Sequence record: OM386655.1
Reading direction: 5' to 3' (one strand)
DNA: 64,000 bases
From: Escherichia phage vB_EcoM_ESCO10
Shown: positions 1,059 to 61,581 of the stretch, in pieces
Numbering within the stretch: position 1 is the stretch's first letter
Layout of the letters: the number at the start of each line of letters is the position of its first letter
Notes under the pieces: model-generated
What the model was told of the DNA's origin: nothing
What the model saw: the letters and a program-made list of their open reading frames with translations, nothing else
The model's database searches: none
Position numbers and translations under genes: made by a program

Positions 1059-1292
1059 TTAAACAATATCAGTAGGCGTAAACATTGCCTCGTTTTTGGT
1101 CTTCCAGTCAGCAGCATCAGTCACTACAGTTGAGTAGGCCGCTACCGCCGAAGGGAAAGTCTGATAATGAGCATTGGCAATACGATGTGCATTAGAATAG
1201 ATTTCAAACGGAACAGAAACCTCGGTACCTTTAACTTCTTTACCTACACCAGCTGCATGCGTGAAGGTTTTAATATTAACGAAACCACCCAT
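1059..1292 (-). CDS. soc: small outer capsid protein Soc
   Basis: 77 aa; GxVNIKTF...AHYQTFPS...AAYSTV matches T4 Soc from memory; RBS AGGAG upstream. Confidence 0.85.
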   Translation of the reverse strand: MGGFVNIKTFTHAAGVGKEVKGTEVSVPFEIYSNAHRIANAHYQTFPSAVAAYSTVVTDAADWKTKNEAMFTPTDIV

Positions 1293-1323
1293 AATTAACT
1301 CCTTTGTTGTTTAATTACAGGTG

Positions 1324-1331
1324 TATTTATA
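1324..1331 (-). promoter_or_regulatory. T4-type late promoter box TATAAATA upstream of soc
   Basis: plus-strand tatttata = TATAAATA on minus strand, about 30 bp upstream of the soc ATG. Confidence 0.55.
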
Positions 1332-28124: not shown

Positions 28125-28598
28125 TCATTTAAGCGATTTCCTCAGTTGTTTTTTAAATGAATCAACCATTTGTTTCTTAGTGTCGGATTCATTATAAGTC
28201 ATTCCATGTGAAAGCATTTCAGCAATCATTTCTTCCTTACCTAATCTACTGAACTCTTTGGTTTTATCAGGAACGAAATTAGGATGAATATTATTTTCAG
28301 TGTAATCGGTTTTCAGATAGACTAGCAAATTCTCTAACCATTCGAGGTAGTCAACGTTTTGACCTTTCAAACCAGAACGGTTGAACTTATGCTTCATTTG
28401 TCCCTCTGCAGCATTGCACAGGTTACATAGTAAACCACGAACCTTACCAGCTTTTGGCCCGTTCAATTCATGGTCGTGGTCAAGGTGATTACTTTGAACA
28501 TCAGGGTTTAATTCACGTTTACAAATCAAACACTTACCGTGCTGTGCATCATAAAGTTTTTGTTTTTCTTCTTTGTATAATTTGCCAGTCAACAACAT
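28125..28598 (-). CDS. 49: endonuclease VII (Holliday junction resolvase) gp49
   Basis: 157 aa; near-identical to T4 gp49 from memory (MLLTGKLYKEEKQK...HLDHDHELNGPKAGKVRGLLCNLCN). Confidence 0.9.
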   Translation of the reverse strand: MLLTGKLYKEEKQKLYDAQHGKCLICKRELNPDVQSNHLDHDHELNGPKAGKVRGLLCNLCNAAEGQMKHKFNRSGLKGQNVDYLEWLENLLVYLKTDYTENNIHPNFVPDKTKEFSRLGKEEMIAEMLSHGMTYNESDTKKQMVDSFKKQLRKSLK

Positions 28599-29099
28599 AA
28601 TAAACCCTTATCATTATTAGATAAGGGTATTTATTAAATCTTATAAAACGAGCGATGCAACCGTTTAAATTGGCGAATCATCTTTTTGGTAGGACGAGTA
28701 TATAATCCTACGCAGGTGGCCATAAACTGGTCAGTAGGACTTCCTTTAATAAGAAGTTTCCAGACTTTGTCACCATTTAACTTTTCGGTATAAACTAATT
28801 TAGTTTTCATCAGAAGGCCTCATCAGAAAAGCGGAGTTGTGCTTCAAGCCAATGGATATAGTCAGCGGCTGCAAAAATTAAATCAGATTCTTCATCAGAC
28901 AACTTACGAGAATCTGAAAGCTCGTAAAGTGAATGTTCAATTAGACGGCCTTTATGCCGACCTACTTCAATTTTTGTACTCATACCCAAACTCTATATCG
29001 ATTAATTCATTGTTTGAAGGTTCATTATATTCTATTTCGGAATCGTTGTAAACCGGTTCCTCTGGCTCGGTGGTTTCCCACCGAGCGACATACCACGGC

Positions 29100-45731: not shown

Positions 45732-46148
45732 TTAAGCGTAAATAGCCTTACCATAATGTTTGTACCAGGTAGGGCGTTGTGCAATTTTTTCGTCTAAACG
45801 GGCTTGTGATATAGCGATAGAAGCTTCATGGGGAATATAATCACCACGGAATTCCTGAGGAATATCACTAATATCCTGGACTGTAGTATCCTTGATATTA
45901 AACCCGCGTTTTAGACATTCGGCTATAAGCTCAATTTGACGTTTACGTAAGAACTCAAGCTTATCGTAAAAGAATGTAACATGACCCGTGCCAAGGATAA
46001 AACCTGAGCTGATTTTAAAATCACGAACACGTTTACCATTAGCAACATGCTTACGAACTGCACTGAAAACACGTGGTAATTCACGATATTCAGCCATTAA
46101 GTGTTGGTCAGCCAATTCAGATACTAAAGTAAGGTTGATACGAGTCAT
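45732..46148 (-). CDS. denV: endonuclease V (pyrimidine-dimer DNA glycosylase) DenV
   Basis: 138 aa from [26 protein letters not shown] (near-identical to T4 DenV from memory); track ORF is extended 59 codons upstream; RBS AGGAG. Confidence 0.9.
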
Positions 46149-46162
46149 TTTTAATCTCCTGT

Positions 46163-46205
46163 GTCGGTATGAGAGTATCATATCACAACTACAGGAGATG
46201 TAAAC
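46163..46205 (-). promoter_or_regulatory. early-promoter-like element (divergent member of repeat family)
   Basis: GTTTAC with conserved spacer; located between e and denV. Confidence 0.45.
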
Positions 46206-46209
46206 AACT

Positions 46210-46704
46210 TTATAGATTTTTATACGCGTCCCAAGTACCAGTTCTAAACGTTGAAATGACTCGCTTAGCTCGGTTGGGGGTCTGTTTGTACCAACGAGAC
46301 TGTGCCAGGTTAACTGCGGCCTCATCCCAACGTTTTTGTTGGAGCATACGAAGAGAGTTAGTAAATCCTGCTACACCAGCTTCACCCATTTGGAAGACCA
46401 TATTAATTAGTGCGCAACGACGAACTTCGTCAAGCACATCATAAACAGGTTTCAATTTAGGATTACGCAGAATAGCTCTACGAGCATTTTCCACTGAACG
46501 ATTAAAGAGTTGTTCTGCTTCAGTCATTGTAATACGACCATTACAAACTCGACCCATAAGTTTATCAAGTTCAGCACGAGCAACATCTTTAGAAGGATTC
46601 TTGGTTATCAATTGACCGATGCCAATAGTCCAATAACCTTCGGTGTCTTTATAAAGATTTAAATCAAGACCTTCGTCTTGACGTAACATATCAAAAATAT
46701 CCAT
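46210..46704 (-). CDS. e: endolysin (T4 lysozyme)
   Basis: 164 aa; colinear with T4 lysozyme including catalytic E11 and D20 context and the C-terminal [19 protein letters not shown]. Confidence 0.95.
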
Positions 46705-46705
46705 A

Positions 46706-46729
46706 ATACCTCCTGAGTATAGGAGGTAT
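46706..46729 (-). promoter_or_regulatory. SD-sequestering hairpin in the gene e leader, with late-promoter-like AATAAATA just upstream
   Basis: inverted repeat ATACCTCCT / AGGAGGTAT; the 3' arm is the Shine-Dalgarno and the ATG follows 2 nt later. Confidence 0.6.
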
Positions 46730-46738
46730 TTATTATTC

Positions 46739-47188
46739 TTAGAACATCGAGCTCAGAACCTTATACATCGACTGGCCCATGACATATTCCCATTGTGGAC
46801 GTTTAATCAAGGCGAAAGCATCGAACTCAGGAATACTACGACCGTCAGGGAACGTATGATAAGCAGTACATTTGCAATTCTTGAACTGCTCGTGTTCCAC
46901 AGGCACAGTATATAAGAACAGGTGTAGATTCTTATTGCTAGAATATTTGAACTCACCTAGGTCTTTCAGGAACGCAGGGTCATATGCAGTGAATCCAATC
47001 TCTTCTTCGGTTTCACGCATAGCGGCTTGAATTGGTTCTTCACCCAGTTCAACATGACCTTTAGGAATGTCCCATTTATGACGCATATTCTCTGGATTAC
47101 GAGAACCTGTTACACGGCCCATGACTAGTTCTTTATCAACGGTCATGAACAAAATACCTGCTGATAGTTCTTTAACTTTCTTACTCAT
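46739..47188 (-). CDS. nudE: Nudix hydrolase NudE
   Basis: 149 aa from MSKKVKEL; Nudix box [22 protein letters not shown]. Confidence 0.75.
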
Positions 47189-47426
47189 CGTCTCGTTTCC
47201 ATGATTGGTTAAAAATATCTTGCATAATAATTTCAAGGCGGGTTTCTGTTGATGGACTTTCACTATTAGATACTTGAACCATATAGTCGGAAATAGGACG
47301 GAACATATCCAAGTCACTTTCTAAATCTTCTTTTATTTTCTCTTCCGATGCTCCAGTATCATAGGAATACAGATAAGAATCGCATGATTCAGATTTAACA
47401 TAAATCGCAATACTCATTTTCGACAT
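47181..47426 (-). CDS. hypothetical acidic protein (81 aa)
   Basis: ORF. Confidence 0.4.
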   Translation of the reverse strand: MSKMSIAIYVKSESCDSYLYSYDTGASEEKIKEDLESDLDMFRPISDYMVQVSNSESPSTETRLEIIMQDIFNQSWKRDDE

Positions 47427-48007
47427 TCCTCAATAAAATCATTTAAATTCTGTTTAGTTTTACCTTCGTCATAAAGACGTTGTTGACGACGTAATCGCCA
47501 TGGCATTTCAATAGCCAAACACCAGATACTTAAAGCAGCACCAGCAGTAAAAAGGTTCATTAACCCAGCGCCAATAATAGTTCGTTCTAACGCATCATTC
47601 CAGTTGACATCAATTAAAAACGAGCTCAGCACTAGCATCGGAAATAAAGTAATAAGATATGCCACTACATATCGTCCAAACGTAAGCCATTCAGTATCAA
47701 TGAGCTTGGCCTTCCCATCTTGGAGGCAAATATACTTATCGTCAGTGCGAGTAATTTTCTTTGCGGGTTGCCATCCATTAACGATATATCCCATTTTATA
47801 TTCCTCAATTAAAAGCTCTTTCATATGACGGTTACAGTGCGACCAATCTACTGTACTGGCTGAAAGACCTTCATCACCATCATCAAGATTTCGCCAGGAC
47901 TTTTTAATAACCATATTTTCACCGCTTGGTACAATGATTCCGGCGTTTTCAGAACGCCGGACGAAGTTCACATCAAGGCCCATACATCCGGGTTCATAAA
48001 GAGCCAT
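47414..48007 (-). CDS. membrane-associated protein (197 aa)
   Basis: C-terminal hydrophobic helices. Confidence 0.45.
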   Translation of the reverse strand: MALYEPGCMGLDVNFVRRSENAGIIVPSGENMVIKKSWRNLDDGDEGLSASTVDWSHCNRHMKELLIEEYKMGYIVNGWQPAKKITRTDDKYICLQDGKAKLIDTEWLTFGRYVVAYLITLFPMLVLSSFLIDVNWNDALERTIIGAGLMNLFTAGAALSIWCLAIEMPWRLRRQQRLYDEGKTKQNLNDFIEECRK

Positions 48008-48693
48008 TACCAGCCCTCCATAGGGAATTCAAGATAAACCTGAGCATTAACACGAATTTCATTGGTAATATTTTTAACACGGTCAGTGTTACGAGATACA
48101 CGACCAAACCAACGCCATCCATTACTTACCGTACGAGAACCAGTATGCCAGGTTTGCCAATCAAACTGCAAGAGTGTACGGTCTGGAGCTTCCCACTGCT
48201 CTAATTCACCTGATTCAATTTTAGCCAAGACTTCTTTGTGCCATTGACGATAAATCAATTCACCTTCCGGGATTTCACTAAAGGTAGCTTCACCTGTAGC
48301 AAAATGGGTAGGACACACATCAGCGTTAACAAGACCAAGAATGTGTTCAGATAAATAGAGAGGATTGTCATAATCAGGTTGTCCTGCAGTAATAAAATGT
48401 TGGCCTGTTGGAATAGGTGGACGAGGAACATCGTCGTGGTGATAACCTGGGATAGCCGGATACCAGCCAGGCATCAACATATGCACACGCGAATCAAACA
48501 CTACTTGGTCATTGTTCCAATCATCAGGCAAGTTCATAATAAAAGAGCGCGTAATAGGGCCGCCATTATTATAAGCAAATTCTAAACTACAGTTGAAGAA
48601 CATCGGTTCGTTCTTGATTTTATCATTAGAAATGCCACCAGCAAAACCACCTACTGCACGAGCTTGACTATTAAAAGTTTTAGGACCGTTCAT
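48007..48693 (-). CDS. hypothetical protein (228 aa from ATG)
   Basis: start MNGPKTF with RBS GAGGAAAA; several His/Asp clusters; function unknown. Confidence 0.5.
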   Translation of the reverse strand: MNGPKTFNSQARAVGGFAGGISNDKIKNEPMFFNCSLEFAYNNGGPITRSFIMNLPDDWNNDQVVFDSRVHMLMPGWYPAIPGYHHDDVPRPPIPTGQHFITAGQPDYDNPLYLSEHILGLVNADVCPTHFATGEATFSEIPEGELIYRQWHKEVLAKIESGELEQWEAPDRTLLQFDWQTWHTGSRTVSNGWRWFGRVSRNTDRVKNITNEIRVNAQVYLEFPMEGW

Positions 48694-48706
48694 AATATTT
48701 TCCTCA

Positions 48707-48919
48707 TTACTTTTTATTGAAAAAGTACATTTTACCTTTAGGAGATAAAGATACACGAAGTGCGTTACCGATACCAACTGAACATTTAACCAGGTCGGCA
48801 GATTTCAATTCACCGAACGCTTGACGAAGGTCACCATCACGAGTGTTAACCATCAGGCATTTAGCACCAGCTGCACGAACTTCGTTTAACATGTTGATTG
48901 CTTGGTTAGAAAGTTTCAT
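48707..48919 (-). CDS. hypothetical small protein (70 aa from ATG)
   Basis: RBS GGAGAA; track start is a leader extension. Confidence 0.4.
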   Translation of the reverse strand: MKLSNQAINMLNEVRAAGAKCLMVNTRDGDLRQAFGELKSADLVKCSVGIGNALRVSLSPKGKMYFFNKK

Positions 48920-48943
48920 TTTATTCTCCATTTCACTCTGTTG

Positions 48944-48984
48944 TTTTGATAGGTCTATAGTATCACACCTATAGACCTTGTACA
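48944..48984 (-). promoter_or_regulatory. early-promoter-like element (-35 GTACAC variant)
   Basis: repeat family member with conserved downstream block. Confidence 0.45.
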
Positions 48985-48997
48985 CTGTTTTGTGCAT

Positions 48998-49957
48998 TTA
49001 TTTTGTGAAAGGACGAATTAAATGATGGTTATCTTGGAACCGCTTGATGTAATCATTTTCACCTAAAGCCTTATACATATTCACTACAGCTTGATAGTTT
49101 TCCCACGCGTATTCGCGGAACCATCCGGAAGTGATAGAGGTACACACTTTCTCAAGAGCCATATAGAAACTTGTGGCCGCCGGAATATTGAAGTCATTAG
49201 GAACCTGTGAACGTTCTAGCGCTAAGACACAAGTTTCTTCGTATACACCAGCCAGTTTAATAGCTTCAGGCAAAGCTTCAAACTTCTCACGAGAGGTCAT
49301 GACTTCAGAGCCTTCTTTAATATAAAAGGTATACGCCGGACGGCCTGCTAGCGCGACGGCTTCATGGATAGAGTCGTGGTCCAGAGTATAAATTGTGTCA
49401 TTAAAGAATGAAGATTTGTTAACGTCCAGTTTAGGATGAGAATAGCTCAACGTTTCTTTCTGACGTTGCAGCATGATTTCTTGGAGCTCTTCGTTCAGGG
49501 TTACACCCTTATTACGAAGGTATTTTATATGGGACATCGTCTTCAGAAAGAATGGGTTGTTCTTTAGGAAACGATGAGAGGTTTTAATAGCCAGACAGAT
49601 ATCAGGAGTAGCCCAATAGAAACCTGTCATACGATCTTTCTTAATATGATTTTCAGCATATTTCAGAAGACGATAGCTTGAGGTGATGTCTTCGTCTTGA
49701 AGCTCATCGGTGATTTCTCGTACGTTAGTAAGGGCCCGTACAATATAAGCTTCGAAATAGGTTTCTTTACCGTTGTGCATGCATTTAAAAGCTTGGACAT
49801 CAGGGTTGTCTACGTGTACATGAGCGCCGAACATCTGCGCTTTAAAGTTATTCCATGACCCTTGGTCAGCAATGAAATCCCAATCAGAATTTTCGATATA
49901 TTTACTTTCGATCAAACCTGCGTGGTGTAGAGCACGAGAACCAATAACTAACATCAT
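48998..49957 (-). CDS. hypothetical protein (319 aa)
   Basis: large ORF of unknown function. Confidence 0.55.
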   Translation of the reverse strand: MMLVIGSRALHHAGLIESKYIENSDWDFIADQGSWNNFKAQMFGAHVHVDNPDVQAFKCMHNGKETYFEAYIVRALTNVREITDELQDEDITSSYRLLKYAENHIKKDRMTGFYWATPDICLAIKTSHRFLKNNPFFLKTMSHIKYLRNKGVTLNEELQEIMLQRQKETLSYSHPKLDVNKSSFFNDTIYTLDHDSIHEAVALAGRPAYTFYIKEGSEVMTSREKFEALPEAIKLAGVYEETCVLALERSQVPNDFNIPAATSFYMALEKVCTSITSGWFREYAWENYQAVVNMYKALGENDYIKRFQDNHHLIRPFTK

Positions 49958-49978
49958 AATATTTTCCTCAGAATTAAA

Positions 49979-50215
49979 TTAAATGTCCCAGCGGGCGCTA
50001 TCATATTCATCCCATAGAGCTTCATGGGAGTTACAAACGATAGGAGCAATGACTCCGTTAATATCTTCGTTGTAAGGGCAGATAGTACAAAATGCATCTT
50101 CGAAACGAACACCGTAATCAGACTTCTTATACGCAATGTCAAAAATCTTTTTAAACTTTTCACGAGTAATGGTTTTAGCAACCACTTCAGTACCAATACT
50201 TTCGTAATAAATCAT
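49979..50215 (-). CDS. hypothetical small protein (78 aa)
   Basis: ORF; an alternative overlapping frame exists. Confidence 0.4.
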   Translation of the reverse strand: MIYYESIGTEVVAKTITREKFKKIFDIAYKKSDYGVRFEDAFCTICPYNEDINGVIAPIVCNSHEALWDEYDSARWDI

Positions 50216-50225
50216 GGTTATCTCC

Positions 50226-50426
50226 TCAGATAGGACCGTAAAGGTATGTCCAACGTTTAACGAAAGAAACTACTTCTTCCAAGGTATCGAAGACCTCTGT
50301 AGTGCCCGGAACGCCATCACCACTGATGGTTACTTTAATGCCATCTGAAACTTCCTGGAGATTAACCTCCAGTCGGTTGGCTTTGGCTTCATTTAGAACT
50401 TTGATTAATTCGTTTGCGATAGACAT
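50226..50426 (-). CDS. hypothetical small protein (66 aa)
   Basis: ORF. Confidence 0.4.
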   Translation of the reverse strand: MSIANELIKVLNEAKANRLEVNLQEVSDGIKVTISGDGVPGTTEVFDTLEEVVSFVKRWTYLYGPI

Positions 50427-50490
50427 TTTTATTCTCCTGTTCTGATAACGTGATTGTCATCAGTTGATAAGAGAATAGTACCACAGTTTT

Positions 50491-50820
50491 CTAGAGTTGT
50501 ACATCACTTCTGCAATATTCTAAAAATAATTTATTGTTGTCAACTGTATCCCAACGTCGCCAAGATGGATTCCAGACCAATGCGTTGTCACCACAATCAT
50601 TGAGCTTAAAATGGTCATAGTACATAGCTATATGTCTAGTCTCGTCACCAGAGAACCCTAGTATAGGCTCGCCGTGGGTGTGATACATATGATGGTGCAT
50701 TGAGAGGTCGCATTTATAAAACATTTCACGTTTACCGCGAATGAACAAGAATGCTTGCCCGTTCATATAAAATTCTTTATCTGTTTTCAAAAGATATTTG
50801 AATACTGAATCTTTGTGCAT
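50491..50820 (-). CDS. hypothetical His-rich protein (109 aa)
   Basis: ORF. Confidence 0.45.
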   Translation of the reverse strand: MHKDSVFKYLLKTDKEFYMNGQAFLFIRGKREMFYKCDLSMHHHMYHTHGEPILGFSGDETRHIAMYYDHFKLNDCGDNALVWNPSWRRWDTVDNNKLFLEYCRSDVQL

Positions 50821-50857
50821 AAGTCCTCCTTCACATCCGTGTGATTATTATATCCTA

Positions 50858-51082
50858 TTAACAGCTACTTGGATACCAGATTTTACCATCAGCTTGAGCA
50901 ACGAAGGTTCGACCAGCTTCTTCACCGTAACAAGAGCTATTCAGCCAATCTTCAAGACGAACTTCACCATCATAATCGTCGAGCTCGACACCAAAATCTT
51001 GAGCAGAAGCCATATCTTTAACTTTCTTATACAATGCGGCCAGTTCAAGAGCTGCTTTTTCTAATTCATTAATATCAGACAT
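50858..51082 (-). CDS. small paralog E of a tandem family (C-terminus ...WYPSSC)
   Basis: shares the terminal W-x-x-SS-C tail and upstream leader with the four neighbours. Confidence 0.55.
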   Translation of the reverse strand: MSDINELEKAALELAALYKKVKDMASAQDFGVELDDYDGEVRLEDWLNSSCYGEEAGRTFVAQADGKIWYPSSC

Positions 51083-51091
51083 TTTTATTCC

Positions 51092-51304
51092 TTAGCAAGA
51101 CATAGAGGAAGTAAACCAAAAACCTTCACCATCATTAATACCATAATCACCGCGAACCCAGCCATAATCTTCGTATTCAGGATTCTTCGGTGAAATATAT
51201 TGCCCACGTCCAGAAACATGGAAATCTTCACCAGTTTCATCAGCCACGCTCTGACCTTTACGTACCAGTTCACGGATTTGTTTTTCAATTTCATCAATAG
51301 TCAT
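51092..51304 (-). CDS. small paralog D (C-terminus ...WFTSSMSC)
   Basis: conserved tail and internal ADxxG..F..G..Y.SP motif. Confidence 0.55.
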   Translation of the reverse strand: MTIDEIEKQIRELVRKGQSVADETGEDFHVSGRGQYISPKNPEYEDYGWVRGDYGINDGEGFWFTSSMSC

Positions 51305-51313
51305 TTTATTACC

Positions 51314-51511
51314 TTAACATTCGTAAGAGGAGGACACCCAAGAGGTACCGCTAATAGTAATGCATCCATTATAAAGCGTAATATGCCTGTCTAAGTCACG
51401 AACACCATCAATATAGATATCAGCTTCTTCACGTTCTTCTTTACAAATCTGGATAACATTTTCAATAGCTGCGGCTGCAGTACGGATTGCACAATCTAAT
51501 TCACGAGACAT
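51314..51511 (-). CDS. small paralog C (C-terminus ...WVSSSYEC)
   Basis: conserved tail. Confidence 0.55.
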   Translation of the reverse strand: MSRELDCAIRTAAAAIENVIQICKEEREEADIYIDGVRDLDRHITLYNGCITISGTSWVSSSYEC

Positions 51512-51520
51512 ATAATTTCC

Positions 51521-51802
51521 TTAACATTCAGAAGAAGAGGACACCCAACCACCTTTTTCAAGGTCTGTGGTGTAGTCGTGGGTGTTAACAATGGCGTATT
51601 GAGGCTCACCATAGTTTTCCCAATGAGCAAGGTCGGCTTTCAGGGCGCCAGGAGAATAATAGTCACCGCCCATACCGCGAGCAGGGTATATATTAAAATG
51701 AGTCTCATATTTGTCTGCAATTTCCTCAGCTCGGCGAATAGCTTTATGGATTTCATTTACTGCGCTGGCCAGTTCTTTATTTTTACTATAATCGTTCATC
51801 AT
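51521..51802 (-). CDS. small paralog B (C-terminus ...WVSSSSEC)
   Basis: conserved tail and IADKY motif. Confidence 0.55.
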   Translation of the reverse strand: MMNDYSKNKELASAVNEIHKAIRRAEEIADKYETHFNIYPARGMGGDYYSPGALKADLAHWENYGEPQYAIVNTHDYTTDLEKGGWVSSSSEC

Positions 51803-51811
51803 AATAAACCC

Positions 51812-52105
51812 TTAACACATCTCAGAAGAGGAGACCCAAGCACCAGAAGTAACGATACCGTTTTCATCGACTTCGCCGCCCTTGTTTTCAATTTCATCAC
51901 GCATCCAGCGAGAGCATTCATAACCAACCGGATAATAGGTACGTCCAGAACCATATTCACCTACGTCAAACGAGACACCATACTTATCTGCAATAATGGT
52001 AGCTTCATTCTCGATATGGTCTTGGGCCCGAAGAAGTTTGCTGATAGCGTCCGTTGCGGTTTGAACGTCATTGTATTCAGGGATTACGATTTCAATTTTA
52101 TTCAT
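51812..52105 (-). CDS. small paralog A (C-terminus ...WVSSSEMC)
   Basis: conserved tail and IADKY motif. Confidence 0.55.
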   Translation of the reverse strand: MNKIEIVIPEYNDVQTATDAISKLLRAQDHIENEATIIADKYGVSFDVGEYGSGRTYYPVGYECSRWMRDEIENKGGEVDENGIVTSGAWVSSSEMC

Positions 52106-52473
52106 GATTTACATTCCTTAATAAAGGTTTCAAGTTCATTACATTTGGTTTGTTTTACATACTCATTATAATTAGCCATCGATACAGCAAATCTCTTTTT
52201 ACGTGGCTTGTTTATTTTATTGGTTTGGATGATATCCAAGACCAATGGGATAAAGTATCCTACTAAAGCAGGAACCCAAAGCCATGCAAGGCCCAGAACT
52301 TCAAATGGATGTCGAGGCATATCATTGATAATACCGCCGACAAGGAATCCAACTATTCCTCCAACCATACCAACAGGAAGTCCCATTAATAATGTAATAG
52401 TGATATCGTAATCGGCTAATGCATAACCTGGATCGGTTTTACTAGGCTTATACATTTTGAACCTCTTTAGCAT
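52102..52473 (-). CDS. membrane protein (123 aa)
   Basis: Gly-rich hydrophobic helices. Confidence 0.45.
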   Translation of the reverse strand: MLKRFKMYKPSKTDPGYALADYDITITLLMGLPVGMVGGIVGFLVGGIINDMPRHPFEVLGLAWLWVPALVGYFIPLVLDIIQTNKINKPRKKRFAVSMANYNEYVKQTKCNELETFIKECKS

Positions 52474-52984
52474 ATTCGCGGCATTCTTTAATAAAACGAT
52501 TAAGCTTACGTTGCTGTTTACGACTTTCTAATGTATACTCGTCGGCCAAAATAGTAAGCTCATCTTTATCATAATTTTTAATATCAGAGTAAGATGGTCG
52601 CCGGTCGACCATACCGAAGAGGTCGCCATTTTCTAACATCAAATAACATACTAAGTGATAATCGTCATCAGCATTAATAAGCTGCTTATAATCGCTAGGT
52701 TCGTTTAAAGCGTATACCGAATATCTTACTCCGGCGAATTCAACTCGCTTTATATCTAATCCAAGGTCAATAATTTCTAAAGCTTCTGCAAAAGAAAGGT
52801 CTTCAGCTAAAGCAAAGATAAAGGGTAATTTAGTAGTATAGCCACGGGTATTTGTTCTGCTTAAGAAATCATTAGAATAACCTAGGTCCTGGCGAATTCT
52901 ATAAAGAACTGCATTAGTTTCATGGGCAAGGCCACTATGTTTAAACCAATCAATATTTGATATAAGGTCATCATATAAGCTCAT
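52448..52984 (-). CDS. hypothetical protein (178 aa)
   Basis: ORF. Confidence 0.5.
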   Translation of the reverse strand: MSLYDDLISNIDWFKHSGLAHETNAVLYRIRQDLGYSNDFLSRTNTRGYTTKLPFIFALAEDLSFAEALEIIDLGLDIKRVEFAGVRYSVYALNEPSDYKQLINADDDYHLVCYLMLENGDLFGMVDRRPSYSDIKNYDKDELTILADEYTLESRKQQRKLNRFIKECREYAKEVQNV

Positions 52985-53032
52985 AATATTCTCCTCTCCT
53001 CCAAAGAGGGAGACTTCGGTCTCCCAGTAACA

Positions 53033-53626
53033 TTACTTAAGTGAATTGATGTAGTCTTCGATATCAGCTGAAGTCGTATCCATTCCAACTTGAGGGCCTT
53101 TAAACGTTTCTACACGCATCAGGGTATCTTCAATATCAATCTTGGTCAGTGCAGCGATTTCAACAACATCATCGGCAGTCGCAATACCAAGGGCAGCCAT
53201 ATTACGAGTTTCACGGATGTATTCCAATTTAACCGCTAGTTCCTGGCGAGAGTCATCAAGTTCCTTGACCTTCAATTTGATTTCGTTACGCATCTCGATA
53301 TAATCGTCAGCTTTCTTACGAAGTTGAGTAGCTGTTCGACGATAAAGGAGACCGAGTTTAGCATGTACCTGGACATCGGCACCTTCAGCAATCAATTTAC
53401 GGATTTCACGTTCTTTAGAACTAGCCAGTTGGTCCTTTTCGTTAGCGAGTTCACGAATACGTTTTTCTTCACTTACAGACTTAACATGAGCAGTCTGGAG
53501 TTCAGTGATTTTATCAATCAGAGTAGAAGCAGCTTTAGTGTATTGGTCTTCAATTGACAGGTTCTGAGCCATTGCGGTGCCAAGTTTAGAGCGGATGAAT
53601 TCAACGATTTTCTTTAAAGTGTTCAT
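53033..53626 (-). CDS. coiled-coil protein (198 aa from ATG), PspA/IM30-like?
   Basis: start MNTLKK with RBS GAAGGAAA; long charged heptad-like helices; family assignment tentative. Confidence 0.45.
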
Positions 53627-53702
53627 AGTATTTCCTTCAGTTAGATGGCATTTTGTAATCCATGAGGGCATTATACCCTGCCCTCGGAGGTTTGTAAACA
53701 TT

Positions 53703-54101
53703 TTATTTCATTTTTGCTAGGCAGATTTCATTGGCTTCCCATTGAGCTTGCTTAATAATAGCTTTGGACACAGGAACCTTTTGACCATAAGTGTTTGACG
53801 TCGAGAGAACAATATATTTGTTTGCCTCATTATGCCATCCCCGTGATTTTTCGCCATGAGTACCTTTAATTACAGCTGACACCTCAACAGAGCAGCCATC
53901 AGAACTAATCTTGGTGTCTACAATCCATTCATTTCTCTCGGCGGCTTCAATTTCCGATCTCATTTTTTCTTCATACACGGCAGCCCAATCAGTTTGTGTC
54001 AATCTTAAACTAAGAGCTTTCTTTAATTCTTTGGCAGCTTTTTGTTGTTCAGGTGTTAATGAATTATATAACTCTCGCATTTCTTTATCTTCGATATTCA
54101 T
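53703..54101 (-). CDS. hypothetical protein (132 aa)
   Basis: ORF. Confidence 0.45.
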
Positions 54102-54158
54102 TATGTTCTCCTCAAATTATGGGCTCATAATATCTCAATCATGAGCCCATGTAAACAA

Positions 54159-54432
54159 TTATTTCATATTATTGAAATATTCTTCTGCGATTTCATCGTT
54201 ATCATGGTAAATTTTAGTAGACAATTTAACATAACCTTCAGCAGCAAACATATTAACCACAACCTTTACAGTATACCACTGACCGTCGTCATTACCCATT
54301 ACTGCATAGGTTTCAAATATGGGATGGTCTTCACCAACAACTTTAATATCGTTAACAGTAGCACCAAATTCTTCCGGAACACATTTCATAAAGAAATTAA
54401 ACAGTTCACCGTAATTATCCATTTCATTCTCC
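54159..54432 (-). CDS. hypothetical acidic protein (87 aa from ATG)
   Basis: ATG after GGAGAA; track start is a TTG leader extension. Confidence 0.45.
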
Positions 54433-54464
54433 AAGTTGTTTTTCTGTATCAGTAGTTGATAGTT

Positions 54465-54506
54465 GTATAGTACCATGGAAGAACAGGGATGTAAACAGTT
54501 TTGTGA
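54465..54506 (-). promoter_or_regulatory. T4-type early promoter (repeat family variant)
   Basis: GTTTAC ... TACTATACAACTATCAAC. Confidence 0.5.
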
Positions 54507-54634
54507 AAAATTTTTTAAAAAGTTTTAGGGAATTCTAGGGAAGGGTGGGGCAATTAAAAGATAGGATAATATATTATAAAGGGTAGAAACTAAATGATGC
54601 CTAGAGAGGCCCAGAAAGGCCTAGATACCAAAAA

Positions 54635-54656
54635 GCCCCAACCTTTCGGTTGGGGC
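54635..54656 (-). terminator. intrinsic terminator (GCCCCAACC-GAAA-GGUUGGGGC + U-run)
   Basis: 9-bp perfect stem with GAAA loop on the minus transcript, a few nt after the stop of 54665..55126. Confidence 0.6.
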
Positions 54657-54664
54657 TAAGAATG

Positions 54665-55126
54665 TTATTTGATTTGTTTAGCAGACCAAATGCGGTCTTT
54701 GATGATTTTTTGGAGGTCTTCAACATACTCTAGGTCATGAGCATGTGGATTATCTTTAAAACTATGAGCTCGCGCAAGTTTCTGGCCTTCAGTCTTAATT
54801 ACCAAAAGTTCTTTAAGAATTGCTTCATATCTAGAGATAATTCCTTTAGCAATATTTTTTTCTTGTGCTGCTTTAGGGTCAGCCTTAGGAGCAGGTTTAC
54901 CAGAAGGTTTTTCGAAAGCCGCCCCAGTAGCAACCAGGCTTTTCCAGGCGGTGGTAACATAGTTACCCACAAAGCCTTCAGCTCTCATATCGTCGTAGAA
55001 CTTGTACCGAGATTCGTCAGAAGCATCTTTATAAGAATATTTACCTGCTTGGATAGCTGCTTGAGCTGCTGCACGAACATCAGAACTAGATGCTTCGGTC
55101 ATTAAAAATTCGTTGTAAGTTTTCAT
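54665..55126 (-). CDS. internal protein (IP) with capsid targeting sequence
   Basis: 153 aa; N-terminus MKTYNEFLMTEA; late promoter box about 29 bp upstream. Confidence 0.6.
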   Translation of the reverse strand: MKTYNEFLMTEASSSDVRAAAQAAIQAGKYSYKDASDESRYKFYDDMRAEGFVGNYVTTAWKSLVATGAAFEKPSGKPAPKADPKAAQEKNIAKGIISRYEAILKELLVIKTEGQKLARAHSFKDNPHAHDLEYVEDLQKIIKDRIWSAKQIK

Positions 55127-55154
55127 TATTGTTTCCTGTGATAATTAACTTATC

Positions 55155-55162
55155 TATTTATA
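55155..55162 (-). promoter_or_regulatory. T4-type late promoter box TATAAATA
   Basis: exact TATAAATA on minus strand upstream of the IP gene. Confidence 0.55.
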
Positions 55163-55166
55163 CCAA

Positions 55167-55194
55167 AAAGGCCCAACCTTTCGGAAGGGCCTTT
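55167..55194 (-). terminator. hairpin terminator (8-bp stem AAAGGCCC/GGGCCUUU with inner GNRA-capped helix)
   Basis: inverted repeat; could terminate in either orientation. Confidence 0.45.
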
Positions 55195-55334
55195 AACCTA
55201 GGGTAACCTTGTCGGGGTTCCACCTGCTAGGCAAGTGTTCGGGGCGCCGTTTCAGCTGTGATATAAGGGGGCATTAACAAAACATAAAGATTTATTAATG
55301 CCAGTCCTTAAACAGGGAACTTCAGTCCGACGAC

Positions 55335-55908: not shown

Positions 55909-55985
55909 TGGTCGGGGTGAAAGGATTCTAACCTTTAACCTGCGGTTTAGAGGACCGCTACTCTATACAATTGAGTTACACCCCG
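55909..55985 (-). tRNA. tRNA-Arg (anticodon UCU)
   Basis: hand-folded cloverleaf: acceptor CGGGGTG/CACCCCG, D-stem ACTC/GAGT, anticodon stem GCGGT/ACCGC with loop CCUCUAA, T-stem AAAGG/CCTTT, encoded CCA. Confidence 0.75.
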
Positions 55986-55989
55986 TGTT

Positions 55990-56064
55990 TGGTGGCCCTT
56001 GCTGGTTTCGATCCAGCTACCTATCAGTTATGAGCTGACAGCTCTCCCATTGAGCTAAAGGGCC
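55990..56064 (-). tRNA. tRNA with CAU anticodon (Met, or Ile2 if lysidine-modified)
   Basis: hand-folded cloverleaf: acceptor GGCCCTT/AAGGGCC, anticodon loop CUCAUAA, T-stem GCTGG/CCAGC, encoded CCA; 4 nt from tRNA-Arg. Confidence 0.75.
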
Positions 56065-60495: not shown

Positions 60496-60932
60496 CCTAA
60501 TTTTTTCAGTGAGTTTTCAGTTATCAATCTAAAATTGATTCCCATTTTATCTGCTGTAGCTTTAGCAGCTTTCCATTTATCTTTATTTACACTCCATGTA
60601 TAATGTTCGTTGATATATCTCTTTTTAGCGGCTGTAGTCATTTTAGCAGGCGCCGCTGGAGGATGGGTTTCTTTAAAAGGTTTGACTTCAAAAAAGAATT
60701 GTTGGCCATTATCAAACTTAACCCAGAAGTCCATAAAATAACGACGTTTCTTTCCATCCGCATTACTAAAATATGGGATAACCACCTCTTCAGAGTTCCA
60801 TTGGACCACGTTAGGATGGTTATCAAGCCAACGCATGAGCCATGCTTCCCATGAAGAACGATATTGGATTTTCTTCCAGTCACCTTTATATTTTTGTAAG
60901 TTAGTAGGTTTAAATTTCCCTGAGTAAGCCAT
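60483..60932 (-). CDS. 4: head completion protein gp4
   Basis: 149 aa; position and size as T4 gp4; late promoter upstream. Confidence 0.75.
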
Positions 60933-60943
60933 AGTTGCCTCCT

Positions 60944-60951
60944 TATAAATA
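60944..60951 (+). promoter_or_regulatory. T4-type late promoter TATAAATA for gene 53
   Basis: exact TATAAATA 28 bp upstream of the gene 53 ATG; SD GGAGG. Confidence 0.6.
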
Positions 60952-60958
60952 TTAATAT

Positions 60959-60966
60959 TATTTATA
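60959..60966 (-). promoter_or_regulatory. T4-type late promoter TATAAATA for gene 4 (divergent)
   Basis: plus-strand tatttata about 27 bp upstream of the gene 4 start. Confidence 0.55.
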
Positions 60967-60978
60967 CTCGGAGGCCCT

Positions 60979-61581
60979 ATGCTCTTCTCATTTTTCGATC
61001 CTATCGATTACGAATCAAAAACAGTCAAGCCGGATTCGGGCTCATTAACTAATGCCGATGTATTGAGCGTGCCGATGACTGATATATTTAGAAATTATAA
61101 AGAATATTTTGATAAAGTGGCTAAAAATTATACACTAAAAACTTATTACATCAACGGAGCCCCTCGCCCAGAAGAATTAGCTAATCAACTTTATGGTAAC
61201 GTTCAATTGTATTGGGTCCTTTTGATGTGTAACAATATCTATGACCCATATTACGGATGGATTACAGGACAGGAATCTGCCTATCAAGCGGCCATTCAAC
61301 GTTATGCTACCGCAGGTGGAAACCAAGTCCTTTATCATGTTAATGAAAAGGGTGAGAAATTCTGGAATCTTGTTAACACACCAGAAAATCCATATACTTG
61401 GTATGACAAAGGTGATACAGAAAAACGTTATCCTCAGTACGAAGGCCCATTGGCCGCAGTAGATATTTACGAGGATGCTATTCGTAAAAATGAATATAAG
61501 CGCGAAATAAAAATAATCGACCCTAATGATATTGAGTCTTTTATTTCTGCTCTTATTCGCGAAATGGAGAAAGCCCTCTAA
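60979..61581 (+). CDS. 53: baseplate wedge protein gp53
   Basis: 200 aa; directly precedes gene 5 as in T4. Confidence 0.8.
   Translation: MLFSFFDPIDYESKTVKPDSGSLTNADVLSVPMTDIFRNYKEYFDKVAKNYTLKTYYINGAPRPEELANQLYGNVQLYWVLLMCNNIYDPYYGWITGQESAYQAAIQRYATAGGNQVLYHVNEKGEKFWNLVNTPENPYTWYDKGDTEKRYPQYEGPLAAVDIYEDAIRKNEYKREIKIIDPNDIESFISALIREMEKAL

Follow-up and report, generated by a model that had tools for sequence, protein, structure and literature searches.

The leader of the lysozyme gene e in a JS98/VR5-like phage is very probably orthologous to the translational timing switch of T4 gene e

Organization of the gene e region

The window analyzed here is a 64,000-nt stretch (64 kb) of Escherichia phage vB_EcoM_ESCO10 DNA (OM386655.1) in which a T4-type lysozyme gene, e, is located downstream of nudE (e.1). 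This is an orthologous context, and the same gene order is found in the T4 annotation. Both gene e and the hairpin in front of it lie on the minus strand (Table 1), a point on which the original prediction has to be corrected. The e protein shares 99.4% identity with its counterpart in phage vb_EcoM-VR5 and 79% with lysozymes of the T4 group, and roughly 1,900 phage records match the lysozyme. Over 1.3 kb around e the best DNA match is again VR5 (93.5%), and the source phage is a JS98/VR5-like T-even phage. Whereas in T4, VR5, and JS98 internal-protein genes (ipIII/ipII) are found between e and denV, ESCO10 lacks them. A promoter-like site of denV itself (TTTACA, 16 nt, TATGAT with TG) begins 6 nt past the e stop codon. 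Farther away on the same strand, two adjacent tRNA genes and two similar terminator-type hairpins are present, one of the latter being followed immediately on its 3' side by a TATAAATA box.

The nudE-e spacer of 34 nt reads, from 5' to 3' on the minus strand, TAA(nudE stop)-G-AAT-AATAAATACCTCCT-ATACTC-AGGAGGTATT-ATG. The nudE stop codon is 4 nt ahead of a late-promoter-type box and for this reason nudE transcripts include the entire hairpin.

Table 1. Positions of features in the 64-kb window (position 1 is its first letter).
Feature	Position	Strand	Remarks
nudE (e.1)	47188..46739	minus	Nudix hydrolase; NUDIX domain and PHROG nudix hydrolase match
Late-promoter-type box AATAAATA	46734..46727	minus	T4 consensus TATAAATA; here A at -13
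Hairpin, 5' arm AATACCTCCT	46721..46730	minus	10/10 complementary to 46714..46705
Predicted late transcription start	46720..46721	minus	Box end + 6, ±1, from the -13..-6 rule (PMC1524935)
Hairpin loop ATACTC	46715..46720	minus	6 nt, without a second late box
Hairpin, 3' arm AGGAGGTATT	46705..46714	minus	Contains Shine-Dalgarno AGGAGG (46714..46709)
Gene e	46704..46210	minus	T4-type lysozyme, 164 aa; PF00959 match
Promoter-like site of denV	46204..46177	minus	In the e-denV spacer
denV	46148..45732	minus	Directly after e; gap of 61 nt (46209..46149)
Early-promoter-like site nearest upstream of e	48946..48985	minus	GTGTACA, 14 nt, GATACTATAGACCTATCAA; signature itself 48964..48946
GATACTATAGACCTATCAA signature sites	5158, 6029, 34136, 35534, 39384, 43303, 45703, 48946, 50464, 54456, 57197, 57492	minus	
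Terminator-like pattern at the hairpin	46705..46740	plus	
soc leader	1331..1290	minus	PF16855
Gene 49 leader	28635..28596	minus	Endonuclease VII; PF02945/PF09124
Gene 4/53 intergenic region	60930..60981	both	Head closure (4) and baseplate wedge (53)
Terminator-type hairpin agccccaaccgaaaggttggggcttttt	~54660..54625	minus	
TATAAATA box	55162		3' of the following hairpin
Terminator-type hairpin ggcccttccgaaaggttgggccttttt	~55200..55165	minus	
Two tRNA genes	55912..56064	minus	Adjacent

A hairpin predicted to sequester the Shine-Dalgarno sequence of gene e

A repeat search revealed two arms of 10 nt that are 100% complementary and separated by 6 nt, with the e ATG following right after the 3' arm. 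Within the 5' arm, ACCTCCT is the complement of the Shine-Dalgarno (SD) sequence. The hairpin with a 6-nt loop that had been predicted directly upstream of the e ATG, pairing the SD, is therefore borne out by this inverted repeat; the proposed 9-bp stem (ATACCTCCT/AGGAGGTAT) was paired correctly but is longer by one A-U pair, which gives 10 bp.

Folding of the 56-nt RNA gave -16.7 kcal/mol (z = -3.2), and 1 of 200 dinucleotide shuffles folded equally well. Three perfect 10-nt inverted repeats with loops of 3-10 nt occur in the window, compared to 1.2 ± 1.3 in dinucleotide shuffles, so that such a repeat on its own is not statistically unusual in 64 kb; what supports the hairpin is its position, its energetics, and its conservation. 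No Rfam family exists for the e leader; at the gathering score only the two tRNAs matched in the whole window, and all local matches near the hairpin were far below threshold.

Late-promoter box and predicted start of transcription

In T4, the late-promoter motif sits at -13..-6, and T4-like phages commonly have A or T at -13 (Nolan et al., PMC1524935). The box AATAAATA was expected just 5' of the hairpin; it is present, but shares its last 4 nt with the start of the 5' arm. Assigning it to -13..-6 makes the final base of the 5' arm (46721) the +1 position, and hence the whole 5' arm would be missing from a late RNA. The (T/A)ATAAATA motif is thus positioned for a predicted start 3' of the SD-complementary strand. 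A late start within the 5' arm that frees the SD had been anticipated, and the predicted +1 agrees with this except that it falls at the 3' end of the arm, so that the arm would be lost entirely.

Only one ATAAATA is found within 60 nt of the e ATG, which corrects the number of late boxes from the two known in T4 to one, and a scan of more than 8 kb upstream on the minus strand (46734-55162) gave no ATAAATA besides the e box. The window as a whole contains 14 copies of ATAAATA compared to 28 ± 5.5 expected from dinucleotide shuffles, and this about two-fold depletion fits with stray late promoters being selected against in a region that is mostly early.

Likely source of the read-through RNA

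A signature of 19 nt, GATACTATAGACCTATCAA, which often follows GTTTACA at a distance of about 15 nt, occurs 12 times in the window compared to 0.7 expected, in all cases on the minus strand. A generic sigma-70 scan left the 48946 site unflagged; the phage-specific signature was found by inspection and then tested for enrichment. As its copies occupy intergenic gaps ahead of minus-strand genes, GATACTATAGACCTATCAA probably represents the -10 region plus the initial transcribed region of the early promoters of this phage. A perfect 10-nt inverted repeat includes the copy at 48951. The site at about 48.95 kb, the nearest one upstream of e at a distance of about 2.2 kb, is the likely source of the read-through RNA, if it acts as a promoter.

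Between this signature and e lie five closely packed genes, the gaps being 13, -1, -4, -8, and 34 nt, and a pattern scan of the minus strand from 50043 to e detected no terminator-like site. Therefore, any transcript covering nudE would hold both hairpin arms. Judged by its layout, gene e closes a tightly packed operon of the early type, through which early transcripts would run.

Energetic cost of opening the ribosome-binding site

The opening cost was calculated as the free energy needed to make positions -16..+3 single-stranded, and in a survey of the 131 gene-like starts of the window 100 nt of upstream context were included. With 15.9 kcal/mol, the ribosome-binding site (RBS) of e ranked sixth among the 131 (median 6.0, sd 3.7). 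At four of the eight top-ranked starts, those of e, gene 49, gene 4, and gene 53, an ATAAATA box is found immediately upstream.

Folding of early versus late 5' ends had been suggested as a check of the switch, and the two kinds of RNA differed clearly. For read-through RNAs with 5' ends 30-300 nt upstream of the ATG (46734 to 47004), the predicted opening cost was 14.5-16.1 kcal/mol and the mean probability of the SD being unpaired was 0.013. For predicted late RNAs starting at 46721 or 46720, the cost dropped to 4.2 or 3.8 kcal/mol, respectively, the former value being lower than that of the median gene start in the window, and the mean unpaired probability of the SD rose to about 0.21-0.23, with weak alternative pairing remaining. 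When every possible 5' end was scanned, RNAs beginning ahead of the stem (at 46731 or farther upstream) cost at least 14 kcal/mol, and those beginning no later than the end of the box at least 11 kcal/mol (11.0 kcal/mol on its last base, 46727); the cost was 9.3 kcal/mol for a start 1 nt past the box and at most 5.0 kcal/mol for starts 3 nt or more past it. The transition from closed to open is therefore sharp and takes place 1-3 nt after the box.

The same calculation for T4, employed as a positive control, gave 15.6 kcal/mol for the read-through RNA, 4.0 kcal/mol from the upstream box, and 1.2 kcal/mol from the second box. In 14 further distinct box-bearing leaders (15 with that of the window) read-through and late RNAs differed by 8-13 kcal/mol.

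Comparison with phage T4

In T4, an inhibitory structure forms in the long early transcripts and lowers lysozyme synthesis from them about 100-fold, and efficient translation is seen with RNAs that begin at one or the other of two late promoters close upstream of the RBS and are devoid of the 5' portion of the structure (Uzan and Miller, PMC3014915, section 29 and Figure 5, where McPheeters et al. 1986, NAR 14:5813, is cited). According to the same 2010 review, close T4-type relatives have similar leaders, in each of which the DNA for the 5' strand contains a late promoter (PMC3014915). Recent mapping of the T4 gene e start site was sought in the literature, without a relevant hit.

Like ESCO10, T4 has nudE upstream, the SD in the 3' arm (AGGAGGTATT-ATG), and an xATAAATAC box overlapping the 5' arm in equal register. 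The energetics are nearly identical as well (from 15.9 to 4.2 kcal/mol in ESCO10 and from 15.6 to 4.0 kcal/mol in T4), and every computable element of the T4 control to which the locus had been likened is thus present. The differences are small. In T4, the boxes are located at -34..-27 and -21..-14, the second TATAAATA being in a loop of 8 nt, whereas ESCO10 has a loop of 6 nt and a single box; tandem late promoters are a T4 detail and no strict requirement. The T4 stem contains a G-U pair (CCTTCT) while that of ESCO10 is perfect (CCTCCT), and the first base of the box is T in T4 and A in ESCO10.

Conservation among relatives

Leaders were taken from IMG/VR loci found with the lysozyme and from annotated phages, which gave 15 distinct leaders with a box. 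The conservation that the original prediction had assumed holds across several genera of the Tevenvirinae: box and hairpin are combined in this way in Tequatrovirus, the JS98 group, Kanagawavirus, Kagamiyamavirus, and Jiaodavirus, among others, and the leaders taken include one of a Muldoonvirus. The VR5 leader shows no difference from that of ESCO10 over a stretch of at least 43 nt ahead of the ATG (-45..-3), AATAAATA included. JS98-group (Dhakavirus-type) loci have an identical hairpin but differ in the box, which is the consensus TATAAATA, and in the 3' end of nudE, and JS98 itself shows one extra base between SD and ATG and one changed loop base. Across the 15 distinct relatives the last seven bases of the xATAAATAC box are invariant and the first base varies (T/A/G), A at -13 being found in other relatives too.

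Two stem registers were observed. In the window, T4, and the JS98 group the stem extends outward via ATA of the box and TAT between SD and ATG, and in a group of Klebsiella and Enterobacter phages it extends inward (CTCCTATC/GATAGGAG), leaving GTCCT unpaired. A plain MAFFT alignment put these registers one column out of step and was replaced by an N-padded, register-corrected alignment, in which 79% of the cells pair and five pairs are changed on both sides, counts that are biased towards the structure by an alignment set by hand with the structure in mind. The double changes include one from U-A to C-G within the SD core (leader L006). The covariation score of 0.100 compares to 0.055 ± 0.009 in shuffles (0 of 500 reached it) and to at most 0.05 in slid controls. 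Covariation support for the helix is modest, and much of the helix cannot covary because SD and promoter box are each under a functional constraint of their own.

When leaders were compared, the device was found neither in the Aeromonas phages PX29 and 50AhydR13PP nor in Stephanstirmvirinae; the absence from the two Aeromonas phages agrees with the published absence of the e-leader device from several Aeromonas T4-like phages (Aeh1, 44RR, 25, and 31; PMC3014915). The hairpin also accompanies e behind other upstream genes, a hypothetical gene in Klebsiella phage 311F and different genes in Serratia phage WSPA, and in the compared leaders the stem always includes the e SD or AUG and abuts the late box.

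In WSPA (L084, 365..406), the stem GTCATGTTA...TAACATGAC comes after a TATAAATA box and hides the start codon and not the SD; a similar switch is predicted, from 13.7 to 1.2 kcal/mol. Rearranged versions of the leader occur in unclassified IMG/VR viral contigs (L021 and L033-L037) whose lysozymes are about 40-66% identical. In these, an SD complement (CCTC/CCTCT) precedes or surrounds a box of the type CATAAATA, CTAAATA, or TTAAATA, which itself belongs to the 5' arm, and the predicted opening cost falls from 9-23 kcal/mol in read-through RNA to 1-5 kcal/mol in box-initiated RNA. For L035/L036, no close relative was found among deposited phages, the best protein identity being 52.5%.

Similar arrangements at other genes of the window

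An SD complement combined with a late box is found at five gene starts of the window (e, 49, soc, 4, and 53). The gene 49 leader reads AATAAATA-CCCTTATC-taataat-GATAAGGG-tttatt-ATG and has the AATAAATAC variant in common with the e leader; its predicted opening cost is 16.4 kcal/mol in read-through RNA (rank 4 of 131 starts) and 3.8 kcal/mol from the predicted late start. Upstream of soc, a TATAAATA box is present and a stem pairs the region around the AUG (11.1 versus 3.5 kcal/mol). Both are known T4 cases (PMC3014915). Genes 4 and 53 diverge from back-to-back TATAAATA boxes, a layout equal to that of T4, and each SD complements CCTCC just upstream of the box of the other gene. Read-through RNA on either strand would therefore have a closed RBS, with predicted values of 20.0 and 15.3 kcal/mol for genes 4 and 53, respectively, compared to 4.6 and 4.1 kcal/mol from the boxes.

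The same logic is known for genes 49, soc, I-TevI, and segB of T4 and for mobE of Aeh1 (PMC3014915; PMC2988022, section 12), where, as in e, the late RNA lacks the RBS-sequestering strand. Being different genes with unrelated stems, these are analogues and not orthologues of the e leader. That the arrangement is a modular device, rebuilt repeatedly and not only inherited, is an idea that we put forward tentatively and regard as rather doubtful.

Other readings of the palindrome

The palindrome might mainly be an intrinsic terminator for plus-strand (antisense) or bidirectional transcription, its overlap with the RBS being secondary. On the plus strand, 46705..46730 with the following TATTATTCTT scored as terminator-like in the pattern scan, the plus-strand RNA folds with -13.9 kcal/mol (z = -3.2), and weak sub-threshold Rfam matches to leader/terminator-type families occur. 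However, the T-rich tail UAUUUAUUAUUCUU is the mere complement of the invariant ATAAATA box and is broken by A residues, terminator-like sites in the region are at chance level (6 versus 5.4 in shuffles), and with 114 of 131 ORFs on the minus strand no convincing plus-strand gene ends at the hairpin. Such a terminator would also leave unexplained that the e SD is always in the stem across relatives with different stems. We consider this reading improbable, and the plus-strand pattern is probably a by-product of a palindrome beside an A/T-rich box.

Protection of bacterial and phage mRNAs by stable 3' hairpins is common, and since the present hairpin starts 9 nt past the nudE stop codon, it could be a stabilizer or processing site of the nudE mRNA 3' end (exonuclease protection or RNase target) with no role in the timing of e. 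That is very improbable in view of a hairpin that stays with e where the upstream gene is not nudE (311F, WSPA), that always includes the e SD or AUG and abuts the late box, and that has no adjoining U-tract on the minus strand.

Just as remote is the reading that the complementarity is functionless, or that AATAAATA is no working promoter and e is expressed otherwise, for example by coupling to nudE translation: perfect 10-nt inverted repeats (about 1.2 per shuffled window) and ATAAATA (28 expected per window of AT-rich DNA) do arise by chance and the first position of the box is A instead of T, but ATAAATA is depleted in the window and yet stands in front of e at T4's distance from the stem, the combination of box and hairpin is kept across genera with changed stems, and the same AATAAATAC variant precedes the analogous hairpin of gene 49.

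Discussion

Taken together, position, folding energetics, and conservation argue that the e leader of ESCO10 is very probably an orthologue of the T4 gene e leader and would act as a timing switch on lysozyme translation. The promoter use, transcription start, and translational effect that we infer would be as follows. Early and middle transcripts would start far upstream, pass through nudE into e, and contain both arms, so that the 5' arm (ACCUCCU) would pair with the SD. With the SD paired, 30S subunits could not bind and no lysozyme would be made before progeny are ready. After the onset of replication, a gp55-type late RNA polymerase would recognize the AATAAATA box and initiate about 6 nt downstream of it, at 46721/46720, and the resulting RNAs, devoid of the 5' arm, would present an open SD for the translation of lysozyme. 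Ribosomes that finish translating nudE, whose stop codon precedes the stem by 9 nt (8 intervening bases), might open the outer pairs and cause some early leakage; however, T4 has an equal nudE-stop geometry and yet shows strong repression (PMC3014915).

The device is already known and has been described in close relatives; it is real but ordinary, and the finding raises no new question. As a classic case of temporal control via alternative 5' ends, the switch would hold back a lethal, cell-wall-degrading lysozyme early in infection although e lies in an early operon. Its intact presence confirms that the e start codon and one late promoter are correctly annotated in a JS98/VR5-like phage. The two stem registers and the compensatory changes provide comparative support for a mechanism tested only in T4, and if the versions from WSPA, L021, and L033-L037 are independent, lysozyme timing by a promoter within a hairpin would be convergent well beyond the T-even phages.
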